Of a stretch of 40,000 nucleotides of DNA, positions 1,900 to 38,536 are shown one piece after another. Both the position numbers and the translations under genes were made by a program. Positions within the stretch are counted from its first letter, which is position 1, and every line of letters begins with the position of its first letter. This DNA comes from Nitrococcus mobilis (GTDB lineage: Bacteria; Pseudomonadota; Gammaproteobacteria; Nitrococcales; Nitrococcaceae), in NCBI GenBank assembly GCA_024102725.1, contig JAGFJL010000047.1, forward strand, positions 1-40,000, read 5' to 3'. Under the pieces are notes generated by a model. The model had not been told where the DNA came from and made no database searches. It worked only from the letters and a program-made list of their open reading frames with translations.

Positions 1900-2002
1900 A
1901 GAGCAAATTCCAGCCACGAAAGAAGCGCTCGATCGCTGGAATGCTTTGAACGCACTGACGATAAAAGAGACGTAGGAAAAAGGCCGTGGAGATCCATCTG
2001 TA

Positions 2003-6900: not shown

Positions 6901-7008
6901 CCGACCTGGCCGTCTGCTTTTCGAAGTATACCTGGATATTTCCGTCAATCCTATTCGGTGTCTATAGGACATGGCGCACTCGCTGATATTATTGGCCTTG
7001 GAGACAAG

Positions 7009-15737: not shown

Positions 15738-15839
15738 GGGTTACCGCTGAATAAATTCTTATTCCCTTGTCATGGGACACTATACATTAAGGTGACCGGC
15801 CGATGACGTATCGTTTTGGGGAAGTTCGCTCGGTACAGT

Positions 15840-16745
15840 TGACCTGCCCCCGCAATTAGGACCGCGTTCCAGTTAGCTCAGTCCGCTCAGTCAACTACCT
15901 CCCAGGGGCAAGATCCCAGGGAGAATTCCTGCCGCCAGTAGGCGGCAAATTCGGCCGGCACCAAATAACCCAGCGCCGAATGCGGTCGCTTTTCATTGTA
16001 ATCACGTCGCTAGGCCGCGATCTCGGCTCGCGCATGGGCGAGACTCGTAAACCAGTGCTCGTTCAAGCACTCATCCCGTATAAGTTGCACTCCCCGCTCA
16101 TAGGCCCATTGGTCGAGTGCCTTACCCGTGAACTCCGGCCCCTGGTCGGTTCGGATCGCTTTGGGCACACCCCGGAACCGTACCGCCCGTTCCAGAGAGC
16201 GCACCACGTAGGCGCCCGGGATGCTGCAATCGACCACAATGTCGAGTGCCTCCTTGGTGAAGTCATCGGGGCGCTCGGCAGCTCCAGAGGTTCACGATTC
16301 ACCGCCACACCCTGGCGCCGCCGACGCTTGCGCACCGCCAAGCCTTGCTGCTGATAGTGGCGCAGCACCTTCTTATGGTTGACCACCACGCCTTCGCGCC
16401 GTAGCAGCGCGTGAATCCGCCGATACCCGAATCGCCGCCGCTGTTGCGCCAGATCCATGATCCGGCCCCGTAGCGCTTCGTCTGAGGCGCTGGACATGGC
16501 CTAATAGCGCAACACTGACCTCGAGATCCCCACAAGCCCGCATGCACTTCGCTCCGAGACGCCGGTGCGCTCGCACATCTCCGCCACCGCCTCACGCTTT
16601 GGCTTGTGGAGTCAGTACTTTCCCGACAGCGCTGCCTTCAGTGCCTCGTTATCGAGCATCGACTCGGCCAGCAACTTCTTCAGCCGGGCGTTCTCCGCCT
16701 CCAACGATTTGAGCCGCCGGCGCAGATTGCGCGGCGGGCCGGTAT
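15840..16745 (-). mobile_element. IS3-family (IS407-group-like) element, 3' two-thirds: orfA C-terminus, decayed orfB, outer inverted repeat
   Basis: The outer end reads TGACCTGCCCCCGCAATTAGG from 15840 inward; IS407-group ends as I recall them start TGACCTGCCCCC. The orfA tail is RRLKSLEAENARLKKLLAESMLDNEALKAALSGKY (16612-16745). Its 5' portion is found separately at 19500-19592. Confidence 0.75.
15891..16611 (-). pseudogene. IS3-family orfB (DDE/rve transposase) pseudogene
   Basis: Reads KREAVAEMCERTGVSERSACGLVGISRSVLRY*AMSSASDEALRGRIMDLAQQRRRFGYRRIHALLRREG, with an in-frame TAG. A frame change and loss of the NQxWxxD...DDFT segment follow near 16260-16290. Then DCSIPGAYVVRSLERAVRFRGVPKAIRTDQGPEFTG and AEIAA*RRDYNEKRPHSALGYLVPAEF, where TAG sits where W is expected. 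Confidence 0.8.
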
Positions 16746-16978
16746 ATCGGAGCAGACGCTGTACCGCTGGCCGGATGGGTTTCTCAGCGCGGGCAAGCAG
16801 GCGATGAACGGCCGTGCCATGCGCAACGAGCAAGCCAAGGCGATCGAACGTCTGCTGGGCGAGCTTGCTGAGCGCAACCAGGTCATCGGCGAGCTCACGG
16901 TCGCTAATCGCATTTTAAAAAACCCCCGAAGGCCGGCGGCCTGCCCGGAGAAAGAGAAACTCGGGCCTGCGCTAGACT
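16735..16978 (+). pseudogene. 5'-truncated HTH transposase orfA fragment of a second element (element X)
   Basis: The + strand reads AQIARRAGISEQTLYRWPDGFLSAGKQAMNG...AIERLLGELAERNQVIGELTVANRILKN. This is an HTH followed by a leucine-zipper-like segment, typical of IS3-like orfA proteins. There is no start codon and no upstream IR. It abuts the antisense IS407-like orfA at about 16740. Confidence 0.55.
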
Positions 16979-17155
16979 GAGCGCACTCCGAGGGGAGCGG
17001 CCGTTGACTTTTTGGTGGACCACCCCGTTTAAAAACGTGGCCCAGGGACTGTAGCGGACCCGATAGTGGTGACGCGCCTGTGCGATCCCGGTTAGGAAAA
17101 TGATCCATTCCGCCATCCCGCCCTTCGGAGGATTTTTGCTCGAAGGAGGACAGTG

Positions 17156-17940
17156 ATGGCCAAGACGAAGCGAGGGCGAGGGGCGGTTCGCACGACGAAC
17201 CTGGCGGTGGTGCATCCGCATGCGGCAGGGCTCGATGTCGGTGCCCGATTCCATGTCGCGGCGGTCGCGCCGGAGCGGGCCGAAGAGCCGGTGAAGAGCT
17301 TTGGGAGTTTCACCGACGATCTGCATGCGCTCGTCTCTTGGCTGCAGGGGGCCGGCGTCACGAGCGTGGCGATGGAATCGACCGGAGTGTACTGGATCCC
17401 GGTCTACGAGATTCTCGAAGCGAAGGGATTCGAAGTGTTCTTGGCCAACGCGCGGGGACGCAAAGGCGGTGCCTGGGCGGAAGAGCGACGTGAACGACGC
17501 GCAGTGGCTCCAGCGGCTGCATCAGTACGGACTGCTGCGCCCGAGCTTCCGGCCGAGCCAGGAGATTGTCGCCCTGCGGGCGTACCTGCGCCATCGCGAG
17601 CGGCTGCTCGATTATGCGGGCGCGCACATCCAGCATATTCAGAAAGCGCTCACGCAGATGAACCTCCAACTTCACCACGTCGTGACCGACATCACCGGTG
17701 CAACGGGCATACGCATCATTCGTGACATCGTGGCCGGAGAGCGTGACCCGCAGCGCCTCGCCCGGCATCGAGATACCCGCTGCAAGGCTTCGCTCGAGAC
17801 CATCACCAAGGCGCTGGTGGGGAACTATCAGCCCGAGCATGTCTTTGCGCTGACCCAGTCTTTGGAGCTCTACGACTTCTACCAGCGGCAGGTCGCAAGC
17901 TGTGATGTGGCCATCGGGCGGGTGATGGCGGGATTGGTGT
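17156..17940 (+). pseudogene. IS110-family (DEDD) transposase, frameshifted and 3'-truncated by IS insertion
   Basis: RBS GAAGGAGGA lies 5 nt before the ATG at 17156. Motifs: AAGLDVGARFHVA, MESTGVYWIPVYEILEAKGFEVFLANAR, then in the next frame DAKAVPGRKSDVNDAQWLQRLHQYGLLRPSF. One extra G in the run at 17454-17457 explains the frame shift. The reading frame ends at the IRL of the IS3 element at 17941. Confidence 0.8.
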
Positions 17941-17990
17941 TGCCCCGATTTGGTGGAGCCTTCAAAGTGCTCAAATGGAGGGCATCCACT

Positions 17991-18332
17991 ATGACGCAAT
18001 CCAAATTTGCTATGCGCTATGCGCTATGCGCTATGCGCTATGCGCCGGAGTTTCGCCAGCAGATGGTCGAGCTGGCGCGCGCCGGTCGCAAGCCCCCGGA
18101 GCTGGCCAAGGAATTCGGCTGTACCGTTTGGTCGATCAAGCGTTGGCTCAAGCAGGCCGAGCGGGATGCTGGCCGCGGCGATGGCGGGCTGACGAGGGCG
18201 GAACGCGAGGAGCTCAGCCGGTTGCGCCGCGAGAATCGCCAGCTGCGCCTTGAGCGGGAAATCCTCTCAAAAGCCGCGGCCTGGTTCGCTCAGGAGACCG
18301 CGCCGAATTCGAAGCGCTCTTCGGGTTCGTGA
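17991..18332 (+). CDS. IS3-family transposase orfA (HTH plus leucine zipper)
   Basis: MTQSKF...YAPEFRQQMVELARAGRKPPELAKEFGCTVWSIKRWLKQAERDAG...REELSRLRRENRQLRLEREILSKAAAWFAQE. A heptamer repeat lies in codons 7-19. Confidence 0.8.
   Translation: MTQSKFAMRYALCAMRYAPEFRQQMVELARAGRKPPELAKEFGCTVWSIKRWLKQAERDAGRGDGGLTRAEREELSRLRRENRQLRLEREILSKAAAWFAQETAPNSKRSSGS
18011..18045 (+). repeat. perfect heptanucleotide tandem repeat (TATGCGC) x5 inside the 5' end of IS3 orfA
   Basis: Direct reading: TATGCGC at 18011, 18018, 18025, 18032 and 18039, preceded by a partial GC. The unit length is not a multiple of 3. Confidence 0.95.
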
Positions 18333-19191
18333 GAGCGAACCGGGCCTGTTATCCGGTGGCGGTGATGTGCCGGGTGCTGAAGGTCTCCGTGAGCGGTTAC
18401 TACGCTTGGCGAAAGCGCCCGCACTCCAGGCAAGCCGCGCAGGACAGGGCGCTGAGCGCCAGGATCGTGGCCATTTACCGCCACTCCGATGGCACCTATG
18501 GGTGTCCACGGATCTACCAGCAGCTGCGCGCCGAGGGCGTGCAGGTGGGACACAACCGCGTCGCACGTCTGATGCGCGTGGCGGGACTGCGCGGGGTGAG
18601 TCGCCGGCGGCGTTTTGTCACGACGACGCAGCGCGCCTCCATGGCGGCGCGTCCGGCACCGGATCTGGTACGACGCGACTTCCGTGCCGAAGCGCCCAAC
18701 CGGCTGTGGGTCGCCGATGTAAGCCATATCCCGACGTGGGAGGGGTTCTTGTATCTGGCGGTCGTTCTCGATGTGTTTAGTCGCCGTATCGTCGGCTGGG
18801 CGATGGCGGGGCACCTGCGCACCGAGCTCGTGCTCGCGGCCTTGGAGATGGCCTTTGCACAGCGTCGTCCCGAGGCCGTCATCCATCATTCGGATCAGGG
18901 TGCGCAATACACCTCGATTGCTTTCGGCCACCGCTGCAAGGCGCTCGGGGTGCGTCCCTCCATGGGTCGGTCGGAGACTGTTTCGACAACGCCATGGCCG
19001 AGAGCTTCTTTGCCAGTCTCGAATGCGAGCTATTGGAAAGGCACCATTTCCGCACCCGCGAGCAAGCGCGCTCGGCCGTGTTCGAATACATCGAAGGTTG
19101 GTACAACCGCCGTCGCTTGCATTCTGGGCTTGGCTATCTGTCACCTTCCACCTTCGAGCGGAGGTACTGTACACAGACAACACCACCTTAG
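18329..19191 (+). pseudogene. IS3-family transposase orfB (rve/DDE), frameshifted
   Basis: The frame is -1 relative to orfA. Motifs: NRLWVADVSHIPTWEGFLYLAVVLDVFSRRIVGWAM and HHSDQGAQYTS. After VRPSMGRS the frame is lost; it should read GDCFDNAMAESFF. The sequence MAESFFASLECELLERHHF...WYNRRRLHSGLGYLSPSTFE continues in another frame. One missing G at about 18973-18975 would restore the frame. Confidence 0.8.
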
Positions 19192-19220
19192 AACTTCCAA
19201 CTCTCCACGAAATCGGGGTA

Positions 19221-19449
19221 AGTCTACATGTTCCGCTCTCGTTACAACGAGATCAGGCCGCACTGGGCGCTCGTGCCGGTTGACGGCGCCGATCCGGTGA
19301 CACCGCAGGCCGTCTACGTTCATGGCCACGCCGTACAACTCCCGAAGTGGCAAGGTTGGGCGAAGGCCGCAAGGGCGAAACTACGCGAGATGATCGACGG
19401 TGCGCACCTGCCGCTGAGTGCTGTTGAGGAAATCGCCGGAGCGTCATGA
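19221..19449 (+). pseudogene. C-terminal fragment of an rve-type (DDE) transposase, probably the 3' end of element X
   Basis: FRSRYNEIRPHWALVPVDGADPVTPQAVYVHG... is the YNxxRPHxAL signature of integrase-core transposases. It begins directly at the IRR of the IS3 element and has no catalytic core upstream. Confidence 0.6.
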
Positions 19450-19499
19450 GCACTCACACAAACCCAGAACGGTCGTGTCCGGTTGATTTCGGAGCCAAG

Positions 19500-19592
19500 A
19501 CATCTTCGGAAAAACGCTTCTTCTTCATGTCCGTCTCCTCGATCAGACGGACTGTACTAACTTTCCGCTGGTCTAGAAATCGGGGGCAGGTA
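19500..19592 (-). mobile_element. detached 5' end of the IS407-like element: terminal IR, RBS hairpin, first ~9 codons of orfA
   Basis: - The reverse complement of 19581-19592 is TACCTGCCCCCG. This matches the TGACCTGCCCCCG end at 15840 apart from one missing base.
- Minus strand: GTCCGTCT-gatcgagg-AGACGGAC, then ATG (19528) AAG AAG AAG CGT TTT TCC GAA GAT, giving MKKKRFSED. This is the usual IS407-group orfA start (MKK(K)RFxEE).
- Homology stops near 19500. Confidence 0.6.
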
Positions 19593-19606
19593 TTTGCTGA
19601 TATAAA

Positions 19607-20668
19607 TCACACGGAGCATAGGCAATTCTCCCGTAGTTGTGCAAGCAACAGTTGTGTTAACTGCATGTAGTCCTTCGGGATGTTCTGAATATCATTCCAT
19701 GGTCGAGTGAGCCCACTACCAAATTCCCAGACCCCTCTGGTCCAGGCCGTATGCGGCTCCAAGCATTTCAGGTAAGGGGTGAATTCCTCTTCGTTAAATG
19801 CGCCAATACGTGCGTGGAGGTACTCCATGACATAGCCCATACTAATTATCCCAGCGCCATGAACAAGCCGGGAGGTTTTAGGCTTGTGGCCTTTCCATGC
19901 ATAATCGTAGACGTTTTGCACAGCAGCAAAGAAATTGCTGATCAACCGCAACCCCTTTTCGAAACCGTCTTCGTCGCGAGAGAACTCTCGTAGAGCCCCG
20001 TCGGAAGCAGAGTTCATGATTACTCTTTGGATTACAGTGTCCTGAATAATACCTTGTGGGTTGGTGTGTTGCTTAATTTGACCGCGCAGCGATGACGCAT
20101 CGCTATAATTCAAGTATTCAACCATTGCGGCCGCCGCCGCGCGAGATCCCAGACGGTCTGGTAGGTCAGTGACCCCCGGAAGGAGCTCATAAATAAGTTG
20201 CTTCGGTAAAGGTCGTGTGTTGTTAATCAAGATGAACTGCTTCCGAAGTTCATCTTGATCTCTGCACAGCAAAGCGGAAACCACCAGTTGAAATTTTGTT
20301 TCGATGTCCATTAACGCGGACAAACGCTGCTGTCCGTCAACGACAAATCCAGCCGCGTCGTCCAGGTCGACTGTCAGGGTCGCAACATCGATGGCTCCTT
20401 GCTTTATCAGCTTCGCGCCACGTGTGAAAGCCACAACCACAGAATTTGGCAAGAGAGCCTCGCGCCTCGACAGGTACTCGCGAATTTCCTTAATGTGACT
20501 TGCGACCTGCGGGCGCTGGAAGCCACTAAGATGACCTTTCTCATCGCGGCCAACCCGATCTATTTTTGCAAAGCGCAGTATCTCGCCCGCAGTAGCGCAA
20601 AAGCAGCAGACTTGTACGGAGTCACCCTGGTTAGGAACCAGTGCTGTATAGCGCAGGATATTGGCCAT
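19607..20668 (-). CDS. DGQHR-domain (DndB/DpdB-like) protein, copy downstream of dpdA
   Basis: Motif blocks: RDEKGHLSGFQRPQVASHIKEIREYL, LLPNSVVVAF, VVDGQQRLSAL (the DGQHR signature with Q in place of H), FILINNTRPLPKQLIYELLPGV, SRLVHGAGIISMGYVM, GVWEF and WNDIQNIPK. It is collinear with the protein at 21947-23140. Confidence 0.8.
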   Translation of the reverse strand: MANILRYTALVPNQGDSVQVCCFCATAGEILRFAKIDRVGRDEKGHLSGFQRPQVASHIKEIREYLSRREALLPNSVVVAFTRGAKLIKQGAIDVATLTVDLDDAAGFVVDGQQRLSALMDIETKFQLVVSALLCRDQDELRKQFILINNTRPLPKQLIYELLPGVTDLPDRLGSRAAAAAMVEYLNYSDASSLRGQIKQHTNPQGIIQDTVIQRVIMNSASDGALREFSRDEDGFEKGLRLISNFFAAVQNVYDYAWKGHKPKTSRLVHGAGIISMGYVMEYLHARIGAFNEEEFTPYLKCLEPHTAWTRGVWEFGSGLTRPWNDIQNIPKDYMQLTQLLLAQLRENCLCSV

Positions 20669-21950
20669 TAGCGAGGACCTGCTTGAGGTATTTGTGAAAA
20701 ACGTAGAGATTATGAATTCCGCGGCGCTTGTTCCGGTTGCTTGAACGGAACAGTATCGTCTCGACGCCTGCCTGACGGCAGACGTTGCATTCGCACCTCT
20801 CCCACTGTCGTGCCTCCAAAGTCCTCTGGTACTGCACTCGTGCTTTTGTCAGCTTCGCGTCAACAGTGGCGCGACTGGAATTGCTGCCGTCAAGCAGTGG
20901 CTCTATGTAGCGCAAAACCGCCTCCAGGGTTGGACTGAGACTCATTTCCCTTGAGGCATAGGCTCTAACTGAGGTGAGAGCGTCGGTTTCCAGTTCGAGC
21001 AAGTGCTCCAACCGTCTGCGACCTGACCTAACCTGCCGTTGAAGAACAAGATTCTCGTGCACCTGCGGCACCCGCACCGCGCTGTAATACTCCATCTCCC
21101 CGTGCGCATTTAGAAAATAGTAGTTTCTTGAACCATCCTTAAAGGCCCGGATGAGAGGAGAACTGGTGTCGAAGCTATCGATTCGATATGGGGCAAACTC
21201 GCTGAGTTGGTCCGCCTTCGCAAACCCAAGCAGGTGCAGGGACACATTCGGGTATCGCCCCACCACGTTCATCACAGCGCCTAGCGCCAGGTGGATGCTC
21301 TTGGTATTAAGAGGAGCCAATCCGCCGACTGCGATGTAGCGATATCCCATATGCACAAGGCGGCGCGCTGCTTCCGCCATACTGCCCGGCGACCAACCTT
21401 GAACAACGCCGATTGGCTGGAACGTCGCATGGTGCCTGCGGTGCTCAAGCAAAAATGACTCAGCCAATTCGAGGGTCAAATCAAACCGTCGGTGAGCTTC
21501 CGGTGTGCCGCCGGCAAGGCCGGCTACGCTATGGCGTTCGAAATCGAAAACTATGTGGTCAACGGAGAAACCGTGAGTGAATCCTGCCTCTTCGTAGAAT
21601 GCAACCGTATCTTCGGGCGTGTATGGTGGATGTTCGAGGCTAGCGTATGAGAAGGCACCACAGTCTCCAAAAATTGGTATGTCTTGGAACCGAGGGTCCT
21701 CAAGACGTAGAAAACGGCGTGCTCCAACCCGGCGAAAACGCATCGCTTGGGATTCAGTATACTTACCCTTTATCACATGGTCGCCAACCGTTGTTCTTGA
21801 AACTAGGACTCCGTCGTAAGGCAAGCGGTTATGTAATTCGTGGGGGTAAACATCGTCCCAATACGGTTTGCGACCAGGTGCGTTCTCATCGTTGATGAAG
21901 TCGTAGTTTGGGTCGACGTAGTCTAAACTATCCGCGAAAATAAATTTCAC
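20631..21950 (-). CDS. dpdA: DpdA, DNA-targeting tRNA-guanine-transglycosylase-like enzyme (7-deazaguanine DNA modification)
   Basis: - N-terminus MKFIFADSLDYVDPNYDF.
- FGDCGAFSY aligns with the TGT DSGGFQ active-site motif.
- TGT-type zinc site CECNVC...(23 aa)...H, near the C-terminus.
- GTG start overlaps the upstream DGQHR stop (GTGA).
- Flanked by DGQHR genes, with queC/E/D nearby. Confidence 0.85.
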   Translation of the reverse strand: MKFIFADSLDYVDPNYDFINDENAPGRKPYWDDVYPHELHNRLPYDGVLVSRTTVGDHVIKGKYTESQAMRFRRVGARRFLRLEDPRFQDIPIFGDCGAFSYASLEHPPYTPEDTVAFYEEAGFTHGFSVDHIVFDFERHSVAGLAGGTPEAHRRFDLTLELAESFLLEHRRHHATFQPIGVVQGWSPGSMAEAARRLVHMGYRYIAVGGLAPLNTKSIHLALGAVMNVVGRYPNVSLHLLGFAKADQLSEFAPYRIDSFDTSSPLIRAFKDGSRNYYFLNAHGEMEYYSAVRVPQVHENLVLQRQVRSGRRRLEHLLELETDALTSVRAYASREMSLSPTLEAVLRYIEPLLDGSNSSRATVDAKLTKARVQYQRTLEARQWERCECNVCRQAGVETILFRSSNRNKRRGIHNLYVFHKYLKQVLANGQYPALYSTGS

Positions 21951-23140
21951 GCACGCTCCCGTTTTGACGCTTCGTAGTCTAGCTTAATAAGTTGTTCTGA
22001 TAGTGCTTTCACATGTTTGCTAACGTTTTGTATTTGGTTCCATTCCATTCCCAAGTCTTCCCACACGCCGCTGATCCAGCAGCATTTCGGCTCGATACGC
22101 TTGAGCGCGAATCGTATCTCCCTTTCCTGATCGTCGCTTCCTTGAGTTCGCACGATAATGCGGTCCATTAGGGTGCCCATTGCCTTGATGCCAGCCGAGT
22201 GAGTTAAGCGACTGTGGGACGGGGGCAGAGCCCACGCCTCTAGAAACGTATCTCGCACGGCAGACCAGTACGTGAGCAGTGTGTTATACATAGCCGTTGT
22301 ATCGGTGCGCCCCTCACCAACTCCTTTGAATTGAGCGAGTGCGCCTAACGGGCTACCGATGCTGCGCCGGATAACATCGATTAAGGCCGTGTCGACGATG
22401 AAATGATCAGTCGTACCGTGGCCGTCGGTCGATGCACGGCGAATACGCTCGTAGAACGGTGAACGGGGGTCGCGATTCAGTATGTTGCACAACTCGCTAG
22501 GGAGTCGGCGAACTGCCAAGTCCCTAGGCAGATGGGTATCCACCTCAGGCAGGAGTTCGTTAATCAGTCGCGTTGGCAGCGGTTTGGCCTTGTTGACAAG
22601 AATGAACTGCTCACGCTGAGTCTCAAGATCGCCAGCAATAAATGCTACGACCGGCACCGGGAGACCGGTAGATTTACTCTTTGATAGCGCGAGCGAGCGC
22701 TGCTGCCCGTCTACGATCCAAGCAACACGGGTACCCTCCTCTCGAAGTGGAATCATCAAGGTACCGGCATGAGCGATGGGGTTAAGTCCATCCGGTTCCC
22801 GCCCCCGTGTCTGTTTAAATTCCACTTCCGGCGAGAGCGCCAAGATGATGGCGTTCGGGAACAAGACGTCGCCCGCGTCGAGATATTCAACTATGTTGTT
22901 GACGTGATTACGTATCTCTTTGCGCTGGAAGCCCTGTAACGAGGTTTTCTCGTCCCGATGGATGCGGCTGATATCTGCAATACGGACGATGTCCTCACCG
23001 GGCATGAAGAAGGCGAAGACTTCTATGCCCCTACCTTGACTCGTCCGAAGGGCACGAACGATGAGCGTGTCTTCGCCGTTTACCACGAGCGTGCCTTCTT
23101 CACTTCCCGAAACAACCGGGCAAAGCGCCCTTGTTCGCAA
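21947..23140 (-). CDS. dpdB: DGQHR-domain protein, DpdB-like, copy upstream of and translationally coupled to dpdA
   Basis: Motif blocks: RDEKTSLQGFQRKEIRNHVNNIVEYL, LFPNAIILAL, IVDGQQRSLAL, FILVNKAKPLPTRLINELLPEV, SRLTHSAGIKAMGTLM, GVWED and WNQIQNVSK. The start is ambiguous: ATG at 23140, or GTG at 23086, which overlaps the upstream TAA. I cannot decide which of the two DGQHR genes is the DpdB orthologue. Confidence 0.8.
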   Translation of the reverse strand: MRTRALCPVVSGSEEGTLVVNGEDTLIVRALRTSQGRGIEVFAFFMPGEDIVRIADISRIHRDEKTSLQGFQRKEIRNHVNNIVEYLDAGDVLFPNAIILALSPEVEFKQTRGREPDGLNPIAHAGTLMIPLREEGTRVAWIVDGQQRSLALSKSKSTGLPVPVVAFIAGDLETQREQFILVNKAKPLPTRLINELLPEVDTHLPRDLAVRRLPSELCNILNRDPRSPFYERIRRASTDGHGTTDHFIVDTALIDVIRRSIGSPLGALAQFKGVGEGRTDTTAMYNTLLTYWSAVRDTFLEAWALPPSHSRLTHSAGIKAMGTLMDRIIVRTQGSDDQEREIRFALKRIEPKCCWISGVWEDLGMEWNQIQNVSKHVKALSEQLIKLDYEASKRERA

Positions 23141-24063
23141 GCAACGCCCTCGCGATCCCGCAATAGACGCAGCATCTGAGAACTCGCACCGCCCGCATCA
23201 TGCCAGAATTTTTGAATTAGCCTGCGGACGTCTTCATCCCTAACTCGGTTTCGCCTGATCGCGTCCGGTGGGCGCATCTCCTCAAGCACTGCTGCAACCG
23301 AACTTGCGTGCACTGAAGCCGGGGCGTCGGGATCCCGAGACCAGATTTCCTCTACGAAATGCCGCGCCGCCCTTGGTGCGAAGTCCGTGCGGGTACCTGG
23401 TAATGGACTATCTGGACCATCAAACCGGCCGTCGTATGGCATAGTTACATTAATAAGCTCGGCAGGAATTAACCGACTTCCACTAATAACTCGCAGACGT
23501 TGCACGCACCAGCCCGGTAATGTTGCCAACTCCTCGTGGACTAACCCCAGGTATCTGCCAGACAACGCCACTACGACGGTCGCGGCGCTGTGGTCATGAA
23601 GCAGTCGCCGCAAGGGTTTAGGCCGTCCACGAACTTGGTTGATTTCATGCCACCAAAGACCAAGTTGCCAGCAGCCGGATCCCGACTGGGATCGATACTC
23701 AGCCAAATCGGCAAGTGTAAAGTCATAGGGCGGTACGCGGTCATCCGGTTCGATTAGCCCGAGGCCGGCAGATACCACATAGCAAGGGGCCTCGAATTTT
23801 TCTGCCGTTGATTGCGCCTCTTTGAATCCGCGGCCGCAATAAAGCTCCTTCGCTATTACATGCTGTAAGTGGCCCTGCGCCGCGGACCACCATTCCATCG
23901 CAAAGCGCCGCATCGAACCATTTACCCTATCCGGCGCGCTGAGACATGTACCCACGCCTCGCCGCTTGCGGTTTGTGCAGTTCGTAACCAGCACCAGCCT
24001 GAAGGACCTATCTAGAGAGTTATTGACCACAAACCTGTTGCTTCGCGTGAATAAACGTAGCAC
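23080..24063 (-). CDS. uncharacterised 327-aa protein, first gene of the dpd operon; DpdC candidate by position only
   Basis: GTG start at 24063. Conserved-looking N-terminal pattern: LVLVTNCTNRKR ... ELYCGRGFKEA ... YVVSAGLGLIEPDDRVPPYDFT. Co-directional with and overlapping the DGQHR gene. I do not recognise the family with certainty. Confidence 0.5.
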   Translation of the reverse strand: MLRLFTRSNRFVVNNSLDRSFRLVLVTNCTNRKRRGVGTCLSAPDRVNGSMRRFAMEWWSAAQGHLQHVIAKELYCGRGFKEAQSTAEKFEAPCYVVSAGLGLIEPDDRVPPYDFTLADLAEYRSQSGSGCWQLGLWWHEINQVRGRPKPLRRLLHDHSAATVVVALSGRYLGLVHEELATLPGWCVQRLRVISGSRLIPAELINVTMPYDGRFDGPDSPLPGTRTDFAPRAARHFVEEIWSRDPDAPASVHASSVAAVLEEMRPPDAIRRNRVRDEDVRRLIQKFWHDAGGASSQMLRLLRDREGVACEQGRFARLFREVKKARSW

Positions 24064-24168
24064 AACATACTATGCATGGTCCGCATTAATTGCACGCTCT
24101 TAGTAGTCTACTCTTATACATTATTGTAGGCTGATGGTATGAGACCTGCTGTCAAAGGAGGTCGACTA
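24064..24168. promoter_or_regulatory. AT-rich divergent intergenic region between the dpd operon and queC-queE-queD
   Basis: A 105-bp gap between divergent starts, locally AT-rich (ATACTATGCATGG, TTAATTGCA, TATACATTATTGTAGG). A strong RBS AAAGGAGG lies 7 nt before the queC ATG at 24169. No specific -35/-10 pair could be assigned with confidence. Confidence 0.35.
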
Positions 24169-24435
24169 ATGAGCCATGCTGAAGGCGGGGCCTTGGTCCT
24201 ATTTTCGGGTGGGCAGGACTCGACCACCTGCCTCGCTTGGGCGCTTGATCGGTTTCAGCATATCGAAACCGTGGGTTACACGTACGGTCAGCGCCATGAG
24301 GTAGAGATGCATGCCGTACCTGTTACCTGGGCGAGCGCTGCTATCGCCATGATTGGGGCTACGGCTGTGAGGAGTGCCCAGCGTGCCAACTGCGGGCCAA
24401 GGGCTGGCGGGGCGCTACCAGGCGGCAAAACATGA
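24169..24435 (+). pseudogene. queC: queC (7-cyano-7-deazaguanine synthase) remnant with a large internal deletion
   Basis: - The N-terminus [39 protein letters not shown] carries the SGGxDS PP-loop and the YGQRH motif.
- About 50 codons later, and in a different frame (from 24321), comes the QueC C-terminal zinc motif [29 protein letters not shown].
- Only about 270 nt are present where about 690 nt are expected. Confidence 0.85.
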
Positions 24436-25065
24436 CCTACAGCGTCAAGCATATCTTCTACACGTTGCAAGCCGAGGGTGCGCAGACAGGCCGGCCAGTG
24501 GTGTTCTGCCGATTCGCGGGGTGCAATCTCTGGTCGGGGCTGGAACGGGGTCGCGCGAATGCGCGGTGCCGGTTCTGCGATACCGATTTCGTCGGCACCG
24601 ATGGTGCCGGTGGCGGCAAATTCGATACAGCCGAATCGTTGGCCGCTGCGGTCGCGCCATGCTGGTCGCCGGGCAATGGGCCCGCGCTATGCAGTTTGCA
24701 GCGCTGGCGAACCGCTGCTGCAACTCGACCGCCCGCTGATCGATGCGCTGCACGCCGAAGGATTAGATGTGGCGATTGAAACCAATGGCATTCTGCCCGT
24801 ACCACCGAGTATGGACTGGGTGTGCGTCAGCCCCAAGGCACCCAATGCCCTTATGGTTGAATCCGGCGACGAACTCAAGGTGGTTTATCCGCAGCCAGGC
24901 CCCGAAATGGACCGCCTCGCACACCTCCCATTCCGTTACCGCTTTGTGCAGACGATGGATGGTCAACACATCGTCGAGAATACGAGAGCGGCGCTTGAGT
25001 TCTGTCTCGCAAACCCTGTTTCGCGGCTGGGCCTCCAAACTCACAAGCAACTCGGAATCGAATGA
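24432..25065 (+). pseudogene. queE: queE (7-carboxy-7-deazaguanine synthase, radical SAM), frameshifted
   Basis: - N-terminal frame: [58 protein letters not shown]. This is the Burkholderia-type CX14CX2C cluster motif.
- After ...WSPGNGP the homology continues in another frame: [35 protein letters not shown]...LGLQTHKQLGIE.
- A single-base indel at about 24681-24687 explains the shift. Confidence 0.85.
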
Positions 25066-25607
25066 GCGCCTTCAGCATCTCCCGCCGACTCGAGATCGAC
25101 GCCGCTCATCGGATTGCGGGTCACGGTTCCAAGTGCCGATACCTGCACGGCCACCGGTATGTCATCGAGGCTTGCTGTATCAGCGCCTCGCTGCACACAA
25201 ACGGCGCTAAGCGGGGGATGGTGTTGGACTTTGGGTTTCTCAAAGAAGAGATGGCACGCACGATTGATGAGCCCTGCGATCACGGCTTGCTGGTGAGCGT
25301 GGACGATCAGGAACTTCTGGCGATGCTTGCTCCGGTCGGGCGAGCTGATGCGTGGGTTACTGAGCTCGAGCGGGAGGTTCGGCGAGCGGGGCACTGCTCC
25401 GCCATCGATGGGCGTCTCGGCGGGCTGATCTATGTGCTGGATGCACCGCCGACCGCCGAGGTACTCGCACAGCACTGGTTCCAACAGCTAAAGCCCCGAG
25501 TAAATGAGCGCAGTAGCGGTCAAGCACATTTAACGGCGGTTACCGTTTGGGAAACGCCGAATTGCTGGGCTCGGTACGAAGGGCCGGAGGTGGTCCGACA
25601 CAAGTAA
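25062..25607 (+). CDS. queD: QueD, 6-carboxy-5,6,7,8-tetrahydropterin synthase (PTPS family)
   Basis: The start overlaps the queE stop (ATGA). Motifs: FSISRRLEIDAAHRI, KCRYLHGHRY (the CxxxHGH zinc/catalytic motif) and GMVLDFGFLK. The 181-aa ORF is intact. Confidence 0.85.
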   Translation: MSAFSISRRLEIDAAHRIAGHGSKCRYLHGHRYVIEACCISASLHTNGAKRGMVLDFGFLKEEMARTIDEPCDHGLLVSVDDQELLAMLAPVGRADAWVTELEREVRRAGHCSAIDGRLGGLIYVLDAPPTAEVLAQHWFQQLKPRVNERSSGQAHLTAVTVWETPNCWARYEGPEVVRHK

Positions 25608-26028
25608 GGTTAAGCGGATCGCCGTCGCAGTGGACCCCTTTTCTTTATGGGGCTGTCTCTAGCCGGTATTTGTCAACGTAGCCGTGAATCGACCCACCAT
25701 AGCTCGTTCGGATTCAGCACGTGGCTGGCAATTTCCAGCTGATAGGCATCCCGCTCAATGACGATGGCCGGCCACTTCTCGACGGGGCAGGGAGTACGGC
25801 CAGCGCCCCGGTGAGCCGGGCAATCCCTGAAGTTATCCTGTGATGGTTGCCCTCCTTGATCTGATAGCCTGCTCTCTATGCCTTTCCGTCATTCCGGCGT
25901 AAGCGGGACCAAATTCCGTAGGGAACGGATTTGAACTGCCAGAGCTGGACCCCAGCGACTGGACAGGGATCGAAGCCTGCTAAGTGGAATCTTCTGGCTT
26001 AAAGTTCTCGAAAGAGAAGGAGCGGAAG

Positions 26029-26319
26029 ATGACCCGGCGAAAGCGACGTAATCACTCCTCGGCATTCAAGGCGAAGGTGGCACTGGCGGCGTTGAAGGGC
26101 GAGCGCACGCTGGCAGAACTGGCCGAGCAGTTCGACGTTCACCCCAATCAGATCCAGGACTGGAAGCGGCGCCTGGTGGAAGGTGCCGAGGACGTGTTCG
26201 GTGGCAACGCGGTCAAGGCGCAGCACAACGAGAAGGAGGTAGAGAAGCTCCACGCCAAGATCGGGCAGCTGGCGATGGAGAACGATTTTTTGTCCAACGT
26301 GCTCGGGCGCGACCGATGA
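26029..26319 (+). CDS. IS3-family transposase orfA
   Basis: RBS AAGGAG precedes the start. MTRRKRRNHSSAFKAKVALAALKGERTLAELAEQFDVHPNQIQDWKRRL...KLHAKIGQLAMENDFL, an HTH plus leucine zipper. Confidence 0.8.
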   Translation: MTRRKRRNHSSAFKAKVALAALKGERTLAELAEQFDVHPNQIQDWKRRLVEGAEDVFGGNAVKAQHNEKEVEKLHAKIGQLAMENDFLSNVLGRDR

Positions 26320-26703
26320 GCGAGCGCCGAGCCCGAATTCACACCGAGCACGCGTTGGTGAAGACGCGTCGCTGCGCGTTGCTCAATGTGCCACGCTCGA
26401 GCGCCTACTACCGGCCCGCGCCGGCCTCGGCACGGGATTTGGCCCTGATGCGGGCCATCGACGAGATCCATCTGCGCTGGCCGTTCTATGGTAGCCGCCG
26501 ACTGCGCGACGAGATCCAGGGGCAAGGCCACGGGGTCAACCGCAAGCGTGTGCAGCGGCTGATGCGTCAGATGGGGTTGAGAGCGCTGTATCCGCGGCGT
26601 CGAACGAGCCGGCCGGGGAAAGCTCACAAGATTTATCCTTACTGCTGCGGGAGCTATCCATCGAGCGGGCGAACCAGGTCTGGGCGAGCGACGTCTGCTA
26701 TAG
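26316..26703 (+). pseudogene. IS3-family transposase orfB, frameshifted and truncated
   Basis: LALMRAIDEIHLRWPFYGSRRLRDEIQGQGHGVNRKRVQRLMRQMGLRALYPRRRTS...KIYPY is followed by a frame change at about 26635-26645. The next frame reads LLRELSIERANQVWASDVCY. The sequence ends before the DDE core. Confidence 0.8.
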
Positions 26704-28230
26704 CGCGCCCAGCCTCCGGAGGCAGTTGGAGACTGCTGCCGGGGCCTGAGCATGTCTGGAATGCATCTGGAGGATCAAGGAGAGAAATCTGAAGGATGCC
26801 TGCTCTTCGCTACGGGAGGGCGTGAGCCGAAGCGGCGGTGACCTGCTGCACGCTGGCAGGGTGACGTAGCCCGTGGGAAACGGGGCGTGAGGCGAAGCCG
26901 TTACGCCAAGATGCGCCCCTAGCTAAGCATTGGAAGGTTGAGGAACACGAACCGATTCATCCGCGTCTGTGGGCTGAAATGTCGCCTCCACCTACACGGC
27001 TTATCAGGTGGAGTACGCAAGAGGACGTGCAGAGGTAGCGTTCCGTCCTCCCGAACCCGGCGTACATGTAGGTCGTCGGGTGAGTGGCCACGGGGAGTGC
27101 GTAGCTAGGCCGTGGCGAGTGCGTACCGACTTGCGGCAAGCAAGGATAAAGACTGCGATCGGCAGCCTCACCAATGCGCTGGAGTCCGGCATGTGGACTG
27201 GGGAAGGTCTGTTCGGGATGCAAAGGGAGTGTGGCCCCGATGCCCGGCAGGCTGGCGGAGCCTCCGTAGTAGTCCGAGCTGGGAAGAGCCCGGCACATGG
27301 CGCAGGGAGGCAATTCGAGTGGCTTGTGCGGCTGATTAGCTGACCGTAGAGAGGTGAAGACCTTTGATAATCGGTGAAATGCAGCGCAAGTTGGCAACGT
27401 GGTCAGCAGCCGAGCCGGAGCGTCGGTTCCACCGGCTGCTACGAGTGATTGCACAGCGGAGCTGGCTGCAAGAGGCGGCGCGTATCACGCTGGCCTCAGG
27501 TGGCGCGAATACCGCGGGCATCGACGGAGTAGACAAGCGGACAATGGAGCGTGATCCCCTTCAGCACCTGGAGGCGATCCGCGCCGAGTTGCTCGCGGGG
27601 GAGTATCAACCTCTGCCGGCGAGGCGCGTCTATATCCCGAAGGCCAACGGCAAACAGCGACCGCTGGGATTCCGATTTTGCGCGACCGGATCGTGCAGCG
27701 CGCGATGCTGATGGCTATGGAGCCGATCTGGGAGAGCGACTTTCATCGTCTCTCTTATGGGTTTCGCCCTGAGCGCAGCGTGCATCACGCGATTCGGACC
27801 GTGAAACTTCAGTTGCAGGACGGCAACACGACGGTGGGTCGTTGGGTCATCGAAGGTGATCTGGCGAGCTGCTTCTCAAGGCAGGTCATATCGACAGGGA
27901 TCTGTTTCAGGCGGCCAGTGCGGGCGTTCCGCAAGGAGGCGTGCTCTCACCACTGCTCTCGAACATCATGCTCCATGAATTCGACCAGTGGGTCGAGCGG
28001 CGCTACCTGAGTGGCAAGGCACGCAAGGACCGCTGGGCCTGGAACTTCGGTATCCAGAAACAGCGCCCCATCGCGCTGCGCGAGGGCCGGCAGTGGAAGC
28101 CGGCGGTGGCCTACTGCCGTTATGCCGATGACTTCGTCGTCATCGTCAAAGGCACGAAGTCACATGCCGAGGCCATCCGCGAGGAATGCCGCAAGGCCGA
28201 GCGCAATGAACTGTCCAAGCTGGTGCAGGT
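26704..28230 (+). mobile_element. group II intron remnant (5' ribozyme region plus decayed RT ORF; 3' domains missing)
   Basis: The IS3 orfB homology stops at ...TGCTATA, and GCGCGCCCAGCC follows; this differs by one base from the GUGCG intron 5' consensus. About 670 nt of structured-looking non-coding sequence precede the RT ORF. The RT is cut off after the YADD block, and no domain V/VI-like sequence follows. Boundaries are approximate. Confidence 0.65.
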
Positions 28231-28258
28231 GCTGGTACGGGCTTGGATCAAGAGGTGA
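27379..28258 (+). pseudogene. group II intron reverse transcriptase/maturase, frameshifted, internally deleted, 3'-truncated
   Basis: MQRKLATWSAAEPERRFHRLLRVI, GGANTAGIDGV and YIPKANGKQRPLG are followed by a frame loss at about 27667-27672; GIPILRDRIVQRAM is restored by adding one A. Then SYGFRPERSVHHAI and EGDLASCF, a deletion at about 27870-27876, then AGVPQGGVLSPLLSNIMLHEFD and YCRYADDFVVIV (the YADD motif). There is no thumb/X or En domain. Confidence 0.85.
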
Positions 28259-28265
28259 TTCTGTC

Positions 28266-28550
28266 ATGGGTAGCGGATTCGATAGCATCAAGACCGGCCT
28301 GGAAGAGGCCATCGACCACGCCAAGGGTGGCAAAACGCACGCCCGCATCTACCGGCCGGAACCCGTGGACGTGATGGCGCTGCGCCGGCGCCTCGGTATG
28401 ACACAGGAGCAGTTTGCGGCGCGCTTCGGCGTCTCCGTAGCGACGCTACGTCACTGGGAACGTGGAGATCGTGTTCCCCACGGGCCAGCCTTGGTGCTGC
28501 TCAATCTGATTGACCGCGAACCGCAGGCTGTGATGCGGGCGCTCGGTTGA
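28266..28550 (+). CDS. XRE-family HTH antitoxin-like protein (HigA-type), no cognate toxin present
   Basis: MGSGFDSIKTGLEEAIDHAKGGK...DVMALRRRLGMTQEQFAARFGVSVATLRHWERGDRVPHGPALVLLNLIDREPQAVMRAL is the common antitoxin pattern LGxxQxxFAxxFGxSxxTLRxWExG. The upstream sequence is the intron RT remnant, not a toxin gene. Confidence 0.7.
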   Translation: MGSGFDSIKTGLEEAIDHAKGGKTHARIYRPEPVDVMALRRRLGMTQEQFAARFGVSVATLRHWERGDRVPHGPALVLLNLIDREPQAVMRALG

Positions 28551-29188: not shown

Positions 29189-29985
29189 CTACTCGGCCGT
29201 GACCTGCGCACGCAACGCGGTGCGCGCCTGCTCGGGCGACATCGAGTTGAACTCCTTGGCCACCAGCTGGACGCCCGTGATACCCGCGGAACCGTCAGAG
29301 GCGAGCCACACCGCGGCCGGAGCGATGACCTCGGGAGCCGACCACGGAGCATGCGCCTTGATGTAGTCCGGCATCTTGTTCGGCCCGAACAGGTGGGTGT
29401 CGACCATGCCTCCGGGCGTGAGGCAGTTCACCCGTACCTGCCGCTTGGCAGTCTCTGCGGCGGCGATTCTGACCAGCACGTCCACGCAGGCCTTGCTCAC
29501 CGCGTAGAAGCCCGAACCCGTCCCGGCGCTGCGCCCGAGCTTCGAGCCGATGGCGATGAAGCTCGCACCTGCCTGCATGACCGGCAGCGCGGCCTTCATA
29601 CACAGCCATACGCCGATTGCGTTGACGCGGAACAGCTGCTCGACGACGTCGAGGTCGTAGGTCTCCAGCGTGGTCATGGGCTTGTCCGTCAGCCCGGGGA
29701 GCGCAGTGCCCGCATTGGCCACAAAGACATCCAGGTGTCCGAGCCGGTCGACGGTGGTGCGCACCAGCCTGTCGACCTGGGCCTCGTCAGTGACATCGGT
29801 CGGCACGACTTCGGCCCGTGCGGACCTGCCTGCCGGCACGCGGTGGCCACGCGGTCCAGGTCATCGCGCGTGCGGGCGGCGAGCACGACTGCGGCCCCTT
29901 CGGCGGCGAATCCGGCAACAATAGCCTCGCCGAGACCTCGACTCGCGCCGGTGACGACCGCGACTTTACCATCCAGCTTGCCCAT
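29189..29985 (-). pseudogene. short-chain dehydrogenase/reductase (SDR), frameshifted
   Basis: RBS AAGGGA, then MGKLDGKVAVVTGASRGLGEAIVAGFAAEGAAVVLAAR (the TGxxxGxG motif). The frame is lost after ACRQAG at about 29830-29836. It continues as SARAEVVPTDVTDEAQVDRLV...VFVANAG...YAVSKA (the YxxxK motif). One missing base explains the shift. Confidence 0.8.
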
Positions 29986-30441
29986 AAGGTATCCCTTCGC
30001 ACGATGAACGACCTGCACCCCGGCTCAGTTTGTCTTGCGATTCCGGGGCTCCACCGGTTTTTGGCCCAAGAGGCGTGCTGCCCCCCTGTGAGGGGGGTCA
30101 AACGAGAGCCGATCAACCGCAACCACAGTTAGGAGAAGGCCAAAAGTCCTGAAAAGGTCAAGTGCCTATCACTCACCACTTCCATCTGCAACGAATCGAG
30201 TCCAGCGTGAACCAGTTGCCTTTGGTGCGGCCCCTCTCTCGGTCAGCACATTGAGCAGCAGATGACGCCGGACTGAGCCTGGTGCTCAGCCCGCCGCGCC
30301 TTCTAACCCCGCCCTAGGGCACGGCGACTTCCGGCGCACCCCAGTAATCGAGTGCCCGCGCAAGGTATGAATCAGAGCCTCATCCGCAATGCGGAGGGCA
30401 TCGCTTTTCGGCCCGCTTTGAATGCATCGAGGAGTCCGGCC

Positions 30442-31593: not shown

Positions 31594-32100
31594 TCACTTA
31601 CGATACACGCAGGTGTCAGCTATGGCTTCCGGAACCGCGGCGATGCCGCCGTGCGACTTGATGTATGCCCAGTCCTTTGCCGACATAGGTGCTCCGGCGT
31701 CGCAGTAGGTCAGCCATGCTGAGGCAATGGGCGCATCCTCAACCCCACCCTGATCTGATCCGTCTATGGCCTGTTCAGGCTGTGCACCCTCGTTCTGACT
31801 GCTGTGTACTGGCGACACGCCAGCCGTTTGCGGTCGGCGCACCCGCGCCGACGGTCCGAGTTCACGCCGCCGCCCACTAAGCGCATGGCGGTAATTACCC
31901 ACCCGGGCGACGACTGTGTGGGGGTCGAGGTCTATCCACTCGACTCGCGCATACAGGTCGCGTCGGCCACTCTCCAGCGCTCGCATCGGCTTGACAACAA
32001 CCTCTTCCGGTACCTCGGGCTGCGCCGCGCAGCCGGTGAGAACGGACAGCGCGTTTGCGGCGATAGCGAGTGCGGCGAGGTAGCGGGTATGGCAAGTCAT
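31594..32100 (-). CDS. lipoprotein (hypothetical), divergent from traI
   Basis: Signal peptide plus lipobox: MTCHTRYLAALAIAANALSVLTGC. 168 aa. Confidence 0.65.
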   Translation of the reverse strand: MTCHTRYLAALAIAANALSVLTGCAAQPEVPEEVVVKPMRALESGRRDLYARVEWIDLDPHTVVARVGNYRHALSGRRRELGPSARVRRPQTAGVSPVHSSQNEGAQPEQAIDGSDQGGVEDAPIASAWLTYCDAGAPMSAKDWAYIKSHGGIAAVPEAIADTCVYRK

Positions 32101-32233
32101 GATCCTGGCTCCAGCGATGCAAGGTGATCAGGCCATGCTAGCCAAGCCAACGGATCACTTGGCCAGGAAACACCCCTTCGTATGGTCACGGTTTGCACGC
32201 CCGTGCCGACGCTCGCCGGGGCACCATGGGTGC

Positions 32234-34675: not shown

Positions 34676-34786
34676 TGCCGGACTCGCTCGGGAACACTCC
34701 GTCTGGCGTCGGCCGTTTCGCCCCTTGCACGTATGTGGCATTCCCTAGACTGGTGCCTCAAGTGAGAAAACACCACTGGAGCACCC

Positions 34787-36652: not shown

Positions 36653-36662
36653 AGATGCTCCC

Positions 36663-37208
36663 ATGAGGCGACAGACCAATTCCGAGCTCACCCTGTCCGC
36701 GGCCGCTCGCCACGCCGCCCGTCGCGCTCGCGTGCTCACGCGCCACCATCATCTGCTCACGACCTGCCCGCCGGCCGCCGCGGTCATCAACCGGGTGGCC
36801 GGTTGCCTGGGCGAGGAGCTGTGCCCGCCGGGTGAAGGCGAACCGCTGCTGGTGCGCTGCTGGAGGCTTGGCGCCCGGCGTCTGCGCGCCGCTGAGCGCA
36901 GGCCCGGCACCAACGACCCCGGCTACCTTGTTATCGCACTTCAAACTGTGCTGACTCCGCTCGATGCGGCGCTGAGGCTTCGCGTCGCCGCGCCCGATGG
37001 CGCTATCTGGGTGCCTGAGGACGAGCGGTGCTGGGAGTACTGGCGAGAACGTCACCCCGGAGCGCTTCAGTTTACTGCCTGCGAGCCGGTCGATCCGGAT
37101 GCCCACAACGAGCGCCTCGTGCGGCTCGAACGCTGGGCGCTCGGCCCGCGGTTCACGCACAGCATCAAGGCAACGGCGGGATGGCCCAACGTCACGGCCA
37201 CGGAATAG
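36663..37208 (+). CDS. hypothetical protein between traD and the traJ-like gene
   Basis: 181-aa ORF starting 10 nt after the traD stop and overlapping the next gene by 28 nt. The C-terminal half (GYLVIALQTVLTPLDAALRLRV...WVPEDERCWEYWRERHPGALQF) looks protein-like. The N-terminal third is Arg/Ala-rich and could be a high-GC artefact. Confidence 0.45.
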   Translation: MRRQTNSELTLSAAARHAARRARVLTRHHHLLTTCPPAAAVINRVAGCLGEELCPPGEGEPLLVRCWRLGARRLRAAERRPGTNDPGYLVIALQTVLTPLDAALRLRVAAPDGAIWVPEDERCWEYWRERHPGALQFTACEPVDPDAHNERLVRLERWALGPRFTHSIKATAGWPNVTATE

Positions 37209-38526: not shown

Positions 38527-38536
38527 GGGGGTAGCC

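Follow-up and report, generated by a model that had tools for sequence, protein, structure and literature searches.

The Dpd (7-deazaguanine) restriction-modification system of Salmonella enterica serovar Montevideo, encoded by dpdA-K, was originally described in 2016. In the reconstituted Salmonella system, DpdA swaps guanine in DNA for preQ0 through a covalent aspartyl intermediate, a reaction for which ATP hydrolysis by DpdB is needed, and DpdC converts the resulting dPreQ0 to dADG (PMC10164549). We analyzed a stretch of 40,000 nucleotides (contig JAGFJL010000047.1, positions 1 to 40,000; in the following referred to as the window), which stems from a single metagenomic contig (41,993 bp) of a metagenome-assembled genome (MAG) labeled Nitrococcus mobilis, according to a taxonomy look-up a gammaproteobacterium of the Ectothiorhodospiraceae. 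The GC content of the window is 61.4%. Its proteins and open reading frame (ORF) map were scanned with NCBIfam, Pfam and PADLOC, and the related loci used for comparison were labeled L001-L019. The block at positions 19607-25607, which reaches exactly from the stop codon of dpdB-2 to the stop codon of queD, very probably represents the modification half of a Dpd restriction-modification island that is carried by a conjugative element, receives its preQ0 from the host and possesses a non-canonical restriction set. What the sequences show directly is the identity of the genes, the conservation of the catalytic residues, the lesions of the pseudogenes, the synteny and the mosaic make-up.

The central gene of the block, dpdA (20631-21950, minus strand), encodes a DNA-guanine transglycosylase of 439 amino acids, which in the existing MAG record (J5I81_03850) is listed as a 'hypothetical protein'. 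The protein scored 505 bits with the NCBIfam equivalog NF041059 (cut-off 200; model positions 1-405 of 406) and 496 bits with the DpdA model of PADLOC. With the general tRNA-guanine transglycosylase model TIGR00449 it gave 25.2 bits, which is below the cut-off of 47.6, and the match to the Pfam family TGT was weak (35 bits, residues 149-269). A search of all PDB sequences disclosed a single match, the DNA-guanine transglycosylase of S. Montevideo (7UI4; E 9.7e-87, 294 bits). By alignment with 7UI4, the roles of residues given in PMC10164549 for the Salmonella (Sm) enzyme were transferred to the window protein. The general acid/base Asp (D96 in GDCGAF, Sm D95), the stacking Phe (F100, Sm F99), the base-binding Asp (D131 in SVDHIV, Sm D130) and the nucleophile Asp (in SFDTSS, Sm D256) are all kept, as are the equivalents of the Gly-Gly loop (Sm G206/G207) and of Sm L236. 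The protein contains the motifs FGDCGAF and CECNVC...GIH, the latter retaining every ligand of the CxCxxC...H zinc site. Sm His181 is replaced by Gln, which is also present in 11 of the 12 other aligned DpdAs. Among 5.8 billion proteins, the nearest DpdA reaches an identity of only 62% and is encoded on contig L002. On two cyanobacterial plasmids, L009 (753-2849) and L011 (1074-3149), DpdA comprises about 690 amino acids with a long N-terminal extension and lies in a cluster of different architecture; L011 harbors an additional, second short TGT gene.

On the minus strand, dpdA is the third gene in the order dpdC, dpdB-1, dpdA and dpdB-2 (19607-24063). The genes dpdC and dpdB-1 overlap, as do dpdB-1 and dpdA (by 4 nt) and dpdA and dpdB-2 (by 38 nt), which fits one operon. 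The product of dpdC (23080-24063), a DUF6884 protein, gave 279.5 bits with the PADLOC model PDLC02815 (positions 6-308 of 312) and 40.9 bits with Pfam PF21818 (cut-off 30), while the NCBIfam scan yielded no family for it. With DpdC of L002 it shares 46% identity, and by homology it is predicted to convert dPreQ0 in DNA to dADG. The true start of dpdC probably lies near 24027, and that of dpdB-1 near 23086. Every proteobacterial and campylobacterial locus that was examined (L001-L006, L010, L014 and L017) displays the order dpdC, dpdB, dpdA, dpdB, and the NCBI annotation calls both genes flanking dpdA DpdB. Thus, the block contains a DpdA that scores above the cut-off and retains the catalytic residues, a dpdB gene adjoining dpdA, and a DpdC encoded in the same operon. 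An earlier note made from the sequence had proposed a TGT-like DpdA with zinc site and FGDCGAF motif in one operon with DGQHR proteins. This was borne out by the score of 505 bits, the two DpdBs and the overlapping genes. The search with DpdA, DpdB and DpdC models suggested there placed DpdA and both DpdBs above the NCBIfam cut-offs, and PADLOC recognized DpdC, which the note had not named. The affinity to tRNA or archaeosine transglycosylases that would have spoken against the proposal did not show up, since DpdA fails TIGR00449 and has 7UI4 as its sole PDB match. The wording that the window 'encodes, or once encoded' dPreQ0/dADG modification was apt.

Both dpdB genes encode DGQHR/ParB-like proteins with the motif DGQQR. 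DpdB-2 (19607-20668, minus strand; 353 amino acids) scored 369.6 bits with NF041060 and 390 bits with the DpdB model of PADLOC, and its paralogue DpdB-1 (21947-23140, minus strand) scored 455.5 bits with NF041060, so that both copies exceed the cut-off of this model (300 bits). The two proteins are 34% identical and are ancient paralogues. In neighbor-joining trees the DpdB-1 clade was recovered in 100 of 100 bootstraps, while DpdB-2 grouped with the single enterobacterial DpdB in 84 of 100. On account of this grouping, DpdB-2 is the likely orthologue of the characterized DpdB ATPase, and by homology it is likely to function as an ATPase, too. For DpdB-1, information came from natural gene fusions. 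In at least 25 protein clusters, orthologues of DpdB-1 (43-72% identity) are fused to DpdC, giving proteins of 658-698 amino acids with DUF6884 and DndB domains; one of the fusions is from Candidatus Accumulibacter. In all three fused loci examined (L005, 1063-2991; L018, 10001-12082; L019, 939-3011), dpdA and then a separate dpdB-2 follow. The fusions suggest that DpdB-1 works with DpdC. Sequence searches of PDB with DpdC and both DpdBs gave no meaningful match. We tentatively consider that in most non-enterobacterial Dpd systems the two DpdBs may split the labor, DpdB-2 powering the base exchange by DpdA and DpdB-1 being the dedicated partner of DpdC, a notion that we regard as possible rather than probable. 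If it were true, either the step from dPreQ0 to dADG would be motor-assisted as well, or DpdC, DpdB-1, DpdA and DpdB-2 would form one modification complex. Among the dpd genes, dpdB is the one most often found in extra copies (n=801; PMC11888242). The second DpdB is widespread and has been counted in the literature without explanation, and its natural fusion partner DpdC hints at a role.

Divergently to the dpd operon, remnants of queC and queE and the queD gene are located on the plus strand (24169-25607). The intergenic region (24064-24168) has a GC content of 41.9% and carries an AGGAGG ahead of the start codon ATG of queC (24169); a consensus scan of it disclosed no sigma-70 site. The pseudogene queC (24169-24431) was recognized by tblastn, TIGR00364 and PRK11106. 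Compared with QueC of L002 (236 amino acids), residues 1-49 are encoded at 24169-24315 and residues 198-229 in another frame at 24315-24410, and the profiles cover only positions 1-41 (TIGR00364) and 187-211 (PRK11106). Hence, the N-terminal 49 codons are joined out of frame to approximately 32 C-terminal codons, and about 148 codons (approximately 444 bp) have been lost from the interior of the gene, and with them the catalytic core. The adjacent queE gene (24432-25065; Cx14CxxC type) exhibits a +1 frameshift near 24680. It matched TIGR04508 in two frames (positions 1-79 with 128 bits and 83-208 with 160 bits), the sum exceeding the cut-off of 240, and removal of one base between 24655 and 24704 gives back an ORF of 210 amino acids. 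In the region 24679-24700, the conserved QueE motif TGGEPLLQ, which includes the S-adenosylmethionine-binding TGGEP, is altered to SAGEPLLQ, and QPMDG to QTMDG, changes that would be consistent with relaxed selection. Only queD (25062-25607) is intact. Its product of 181 amino acids belongs to the 6-carboxytetrahydropterin synthase family (PF01242, 107 bits) and is 58.7% identical to QueD of L002 over residues 1-171 of 173. The divergent position of queC, queE and queD on the plus strand had been recognized before, though as a set of preQ0 synthesis genes, of which one has an internal deletion and one is frameshifted. The reported lack of folE was confirmed: tblastn of the window with FolE2 of L003 and an approximate E. 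coli FolE query gave a best E value of about 1. A VUT/YhhQ transporter gene was not found in the window either.

Of the four proteins FolE, QueD, QueE and QueC, QueD alone is encoded whole in the window. Because queC is internally deleted, queE frameshifted and folE absent, the island cannot make preQ0 itself and therefore must rely on the housekeeping queuosine genes of the host. Dpd loci without adjoining que genes are also represented by L005, L007, L018 and L019. Since canonical Dpd islands lack que genes as well, the missing supply within the window does not speak against a Dpd modification module.

The genes assigned to restriction lie in the left part of the window. At 1-6900 (plus strand), dpdF, dpdG, dpdH and a DpdI-like gene are arranged. 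The dpdF gene (1-1899; PADLOC DpdF 445 bits; NF041063 model positions 232-789 of 813) is truncated where the window begins on the left, and its frame is open from base 1, as the translation of bases 1-120 contained no stop codon. It is followed by dpdG (2003-2896; 297 amino acids), which gave 60.8 bits with NF041064 (cut-off 80; model positions 1-281 of 290) and for whose product an exact look-up yielded no record, and by dpdH (2889-6197; 1102 amino acids), which gave 625 bits with the PADLOC model and 284 bits with NF041065 (cut-off 450). The assignment of the 236-amino acid DpdI-like product (6190-6900) is weak; it is based on position and size, a 236-amino acid gene existing at the equivalent place in L012 and L015, and NF041066 matched the C-terminus only (E 0.008). 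On the minus strand, a DpdJ of 2144 amino acids (7009-13443) is encoded, in which an N-terminal superfamily 1 (SF1) helicase (AAA_11/AAA_12, residues 51-462) is joined in one polypeptide to a DpdJ helicase of YprA-like type (residues 713-1436; NF041067, 333 bits). It matched PDLC02895 of PADLOC over the full length with 2036 bits. The adjacent gene (13440-15737, minus strand) encodes a PD-(D/E)XK (RecB-like) nuclease of 765 amino acids (PF12705, TIGR03491), which probably serves as the restriction nuclease in this subtype of Dpd. Its closest relatives are 92, 90 and 85% identical, and homologues adjoin dpd genes in L012-L015 and L017. The lengths of the nuclease, DpdJ and DpdI-like proteins (765, 2144 and 236 amino acids) equal those of relatives with 89-92% identity. 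PADLOC provides models for DpdF, DpdH and DpdJ of this subtype and none for the nuclease, so that automated defense finders would miss it.

DpdD and DpdK (queries from L002 and L007) and the SNF2 helicase DpdE (query from L003) were searched in the window by tblastn, and none was found at E <= 1e-3. DpdE could be located beyond the left edge. The statement cited in the earlier note for the published dpd island, that dpdD-K provide restriction, is therefore not literally applicable to this locus, which lacks DpdD, DpdE and DpdK. The possibility that the 765-amino acid protein is a divergent DpdD was rejected (BLASTP, best E 0.16). The PADLOC matches of DpdF, DpdH and DpdJ are strong, and all three proteins stay under the NCBIfam equivalog cut-offs. 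We regard the DpdF-DpdJ proteins of the window as divergent versions belonging to a subtype, in which the nuclease and the long DpdJ appear to stand in for DpdD and DpdK. Since a Methylobacterium plasmid (L017) possesses an equivalent set with homologues of both the long DpdJ and the nuclease, this is a recurrent non-canonical restriction subtype.

The modification genes are separated from the nuclease gene by 3.9 kb of insertion sequence (IS) debris (15748-19606), all elements of which are degenerate. Pfam matches (DEDD_Tnp_IS110, HTH_Tnp_1, rve, HTH_21) and translations revealed pieces of IS3-family orfA and orfB on the minus strand, an IS110-family transposase broken both by a frameshift and by another IS3 element, and, at the end, a fragment of rve. 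In L014, only 27 bp lie between dpdB-2 and the nuclease gene, which there belong to one array; the debris in the window therefore occupies a former operon junction. In a scan for promoters and terminators at 15.5-25.8 kb, sigma-70-like sites were lacking and terminators were less numerous than in shuffled sequences, so that the scan carries no information. Direct or inverted repeats of at least 25 bp were absent from 15.5-29 kb, and none was common to the IS debris at 15748-19606 and 25984-27300. Thus, the block is not a composite transposon with identical IS ends.

From position 3483 to 15747, the window is 85-91% identical on the DNA level to four metagenomic contigs (L012, L014, L015 and L016). 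The identity breaks at exactly 15747, at a distance of 10 bp upstream from where the nuclease gene starts, and amounts to approximately 64% in the modification genes. This break coincides with the IS debris. On the protein level, the nuclease and DpdJ are each 92% identical to their counterparts in L014, as against 58% for DpdB-2, 56% for DpdA, 65% for DpdB-1 and 41% for DpdC, and compared with the metagenomic relatives L012-L016 altogether, the modification proteins show 41-65% identity. The break indicates that the modification and restriction blocks differ in history. The island is a mosaic in which the half for restriction is conserved and the half for modification is divergent. Modification modules may have been swapped between islands while the restriction modules stayed 92% identical; if so, the restriction half would read the 7-deazaguanine mark generically.

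The GC content of the modification genes is 51.0% (dpdB-2), 53.3% (dpdA), 54.5% (dpdB-1) and 56.3% (dpdC), that of the que remnants 60-62%, and that of the whole block 55.3%. The DpdJ and nuclease genes have 63.8% and 61.7%, respectively. The earlier note had estimated 48-50% against 65-68% and deduced a separate origin. The step is real, though it was overstated: it runs from 51-56% to 62-64%, a difference of about 10 points instead of 17, and values of 49.9% and 67.5% are reached in single 1-kb intervals only. Moreover, L014 with its contiguous modification and restriction genes displays the step as well (49-56% versus 60-65%), so that it is a property of this Dpd subtype. The GC contrast as proof of a recent foreign origin was rejected, since the step exists in the uninterrupted L014 operon. 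For a separate origin GC alone is insufficient; it is the identity break at 15747 that speaks for it.

On the other flank of the block, IS3-family orfA, a truncated orfB and fragments of a group II intron reverse transcriptase (25984-28258, plus strand; HTH_Tnp_1, HTH_21, ORF translations) form further debris. The right part of the window (32099-39112, plus strand) harbors conjugation genes encoding a TraI_2 (MOBH-type) relaxase (PF07514, 266 bits), a type IV coupling protein (TrwB_AAD_bind, TraG-D_C), a DUF4400 protein (PF14348) and TraE (PF05309). On the basis of these genes, the Dpd island is cargo of a conjugative element. An integrase was not noticed in the window, and a tRNA scan of the window gave 0 tRNAs and thus no clue to an integration site. 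Megablast of 19607-25607 against plasmids yielded no match. A search of the contigs of species-representative genomes with DpdA retrieved only one distant locus (Aliarcobacter, 42% identity), from which it follows that the source genome and its close relatives are absent from the species representatives. The pieces of the group II intron-type reverse transcriptase are distributed over three frames (27364-28258, plus strand). An Rfam scan at gathering thresholds gave no match and thus neither a preQ1 riboswitch nor a group II intron RNA. An HTH_3/MqsA-like antitoxin domain (28260-28550, plus strand) forms the C-terminal end of the ORF 28011-28550; a toxin partner was not recognized. At 29189-30018 (minus strand), a gene resembling those of short-chain dehydrogenases/reductases (SDR) is split over two overlapping frames (ORFs 29689-30018 and 29189-29839) and is a probable pseudogene; its label was given by eye on account of an N-terminal TGASRGLG-type motif in the translation.

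Taken as a model, DpdA would replace a target guanine of double-stranded DNA by preQ0 via a covalent Asp-DNA intermediate, driven by the ATP hydrolysis of a DpdB, for which DpdB-2 is the most likely partner. DpdC, possibly assisted by DpdB-1, would then turn dPreQ0 into dADG by hydrating its nitrile to an amide. The preQ0 would be provided by the queuosine genes of the host, as in Dpd islands devoid of que genes, and the restriction proteins would attack DNA that lacks the mark. Their genes downstream of dpdB-2 would once have been co-transcribed with it and are now parted by the IS debris. All of these enzymatic activities, the host supply of preQ0 and the split of labor between the DpdBs are what we infer from the genes described above.

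Three other explanations were weighed against a modification half that is supplied by the host. The island might be an inactive relic, decaying through IS invasion and the loss of queC and queE, that neither modifies nor restricts and whose intact dpd ORFs are merely not yet damaged. The queC deletion, the queE frameshift with its motif changed from TGGEP to SAGEP, the split of the former operon by 3.9 kb of IS debris and the broken neighboring cargo (the SDR-like gene in two frames, the fragmented reverse transcriptase of the group II intron) fit this view. Against it, all ten dpd ORFs (about 19 kb) are of full length with their catalytic motifs, and their lengths match those of relatives with 89-92% identity. 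Besides, many functional-looking Dpd islands exist without que genes, and selection should act against losing modification while the restriction genes remain intact. We therefore consider the relic possible but rather unlikely, and the present-day activity of the system is uncertain. Still less probable, in our estimation, are assembly artefacts of the MAG as the cause of the que lesions, in which case the real island would carry intact queC, queE and queD genes and make preQ0 from the product of the host's folE. The queE shift does concern a single base in the G/C homopolymer context GGGCCC, and the source is one metagenomic contig. However, an in-gene queC deletion of approximately 444 bp is atypical of consensus errors, conserved QueE residues are altered too, and long ORFs elsewhere, one of 6.4 kb, are free of frameshifts. 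In addition, the frameshifts are concentrated at 15.7-19.6 kb and 24.1-30.1 kb, and none interrupts the long ORFs of the dpd and tra genes, which make up about 25 kb. This pattern argues against random sequencing or assembly errors. A tRNA-guanine or archaeosine transglycosylase as the identity of the TGT-like protein, with the cluster acting in queuosine metabolism of tRNA instead of DNA modification, can practically be dismissed: the weak Pfam TGT match and the neighboring que genes are outweighed by a TIGR00449 score below the cut-off as compared with 505 bits for DpdA, by the PDB search that gave a DNA-guanine transglycosylase alone, and by the position of the gene between those of DpdB and DpdC and near dpdF-J.

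Several observations nevertheless weigh against parts of the interpretation that we prefer, a host-supplied modification half with a non-canonical restriction set, in which DpdB-1 possibly assists DpdC. The NCBIfam scores of DpdG (61 versus 80), DpdH (284 versus 450) and DpdJ (333 versus 800) are below the cut-offs, and as a consequence of the IS insertion, the genes of the nuclease and DpdJ may have lost their coupling to the operon or fallen silent. The host supply of preQ0 is inferred from a single contig, and the queE frameshift, lying within the GGGCCC run of a MAG sequence, is a possible assembly error. With regard to the partnership of DpdB-1 and DpdC, Salmonella DpdC is active in vitro without DpdA or DpdB (PMC10164549), and all DpdC-DpdB-1 fusions may descend from one event, which would weaken the idea. 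The AlphaFold2 model of a natural fusion had a mean pLDDT of 81 and a pTM of 0.44, so that the domains are confident and their arrangement is undefined; Foldseek of this model against PDB retrieved nothing at E <= 0.001, giving weak echoes of SspE and ParB only.

For annotation, the window can now be entered as an almost complete Dpd island borne by a conjugative element, and a Dpd island is added to a contig assigned to a nitrite-oxidizing gammaproteobacterium. The locus is a known kind of system that is slightly decayed, and it leaves the understanding of Dpd unchanged. It illustrates that island-borne preQ0 genes are dispensable and prone to decay, and that the modification and restriction halves of Dpd can have separate evolutionary histories.

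With the system of S. Montevideo the locus shares the TGT-like TIM barrel family of DpdA including the catalytic Asp pair and the zinc site, a DGQHR/ParB-like DpdB and a DUF6884 DpdC, the vicinity of dpdF, dpdG, dpdH and dpdJ, and preQ0 from the queuosine pathway. It differs by two dpdB genes flanking dpdA, whereas the enterobacterial systems have one downstream of it (e.g., Enterobacter cloacae plasmid pPOL9A, L007), by Gln in place of His181, and by a DpdA that is only about 38% identical to enterobacterial DpdA. DpdD, the phospholipase D (PLD)-type DpdK and DpdE are missing from the window, which instead has the 765-amino acid PD-(D/E)XK nuclease and a DpdJ with an extra N-terminal SF1 helicase. 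DndB and SspE of the phosphorothioation systems belong to a common domain family with DpdB (Pfam DndB PF14072, TIGR03187 DGQHR). However, the DpdBs of the window gave 370-455 bits with the DpdB model and 36-57 bits with the dnd-associated DGQHR model, and dnd or ssp genes do not exist in the window.

A closer resemblance was seen to the plasmid clusters with two DpdBs of Methylobacterium sp. XJLW (NZ_CP017427, L017) and Sinorhizobium americanum CCGM7 (plasmid B, L006), which have the order dpdC-like, dpdB, dpdA, dpdB and que genes adjoining the dpd genes, and whose DpdAs are 49-55% identical to that of the window. The restriction set of L017 is likewise devoid of DpdD, DpdE and DpdK and consists of a helicase gene, genes for 300, 1127 and 233 amino acids, a convergently encoded AAA protein of 2173 amino acids and a nuclease homologue of 774 amino acids. 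In these plasmids queE, queD and queC are intact, co-directional and located downstream of dpdB-2 together with a VUT/YhhQ transporter gene, while in the window the three genes lie divergently on the upstream side of dpdC, two of them being dead, and the transporter is absent. In L002, divergent queD-queE-queC genes are followed by dpdC, dpdB, dpdA and dpdB and then by canonical DpdD, a PLD nuclease, DpdJ and DpdI. In the metagenomic contigs L012-L016, unlike in the window, dpdB-2 and the nuclease gene are not parted by IS debris, and in L014 the genes dpdC, dpdB, dpdA, dpdB, nuclease and dpdJ form a single uninterrupted array.

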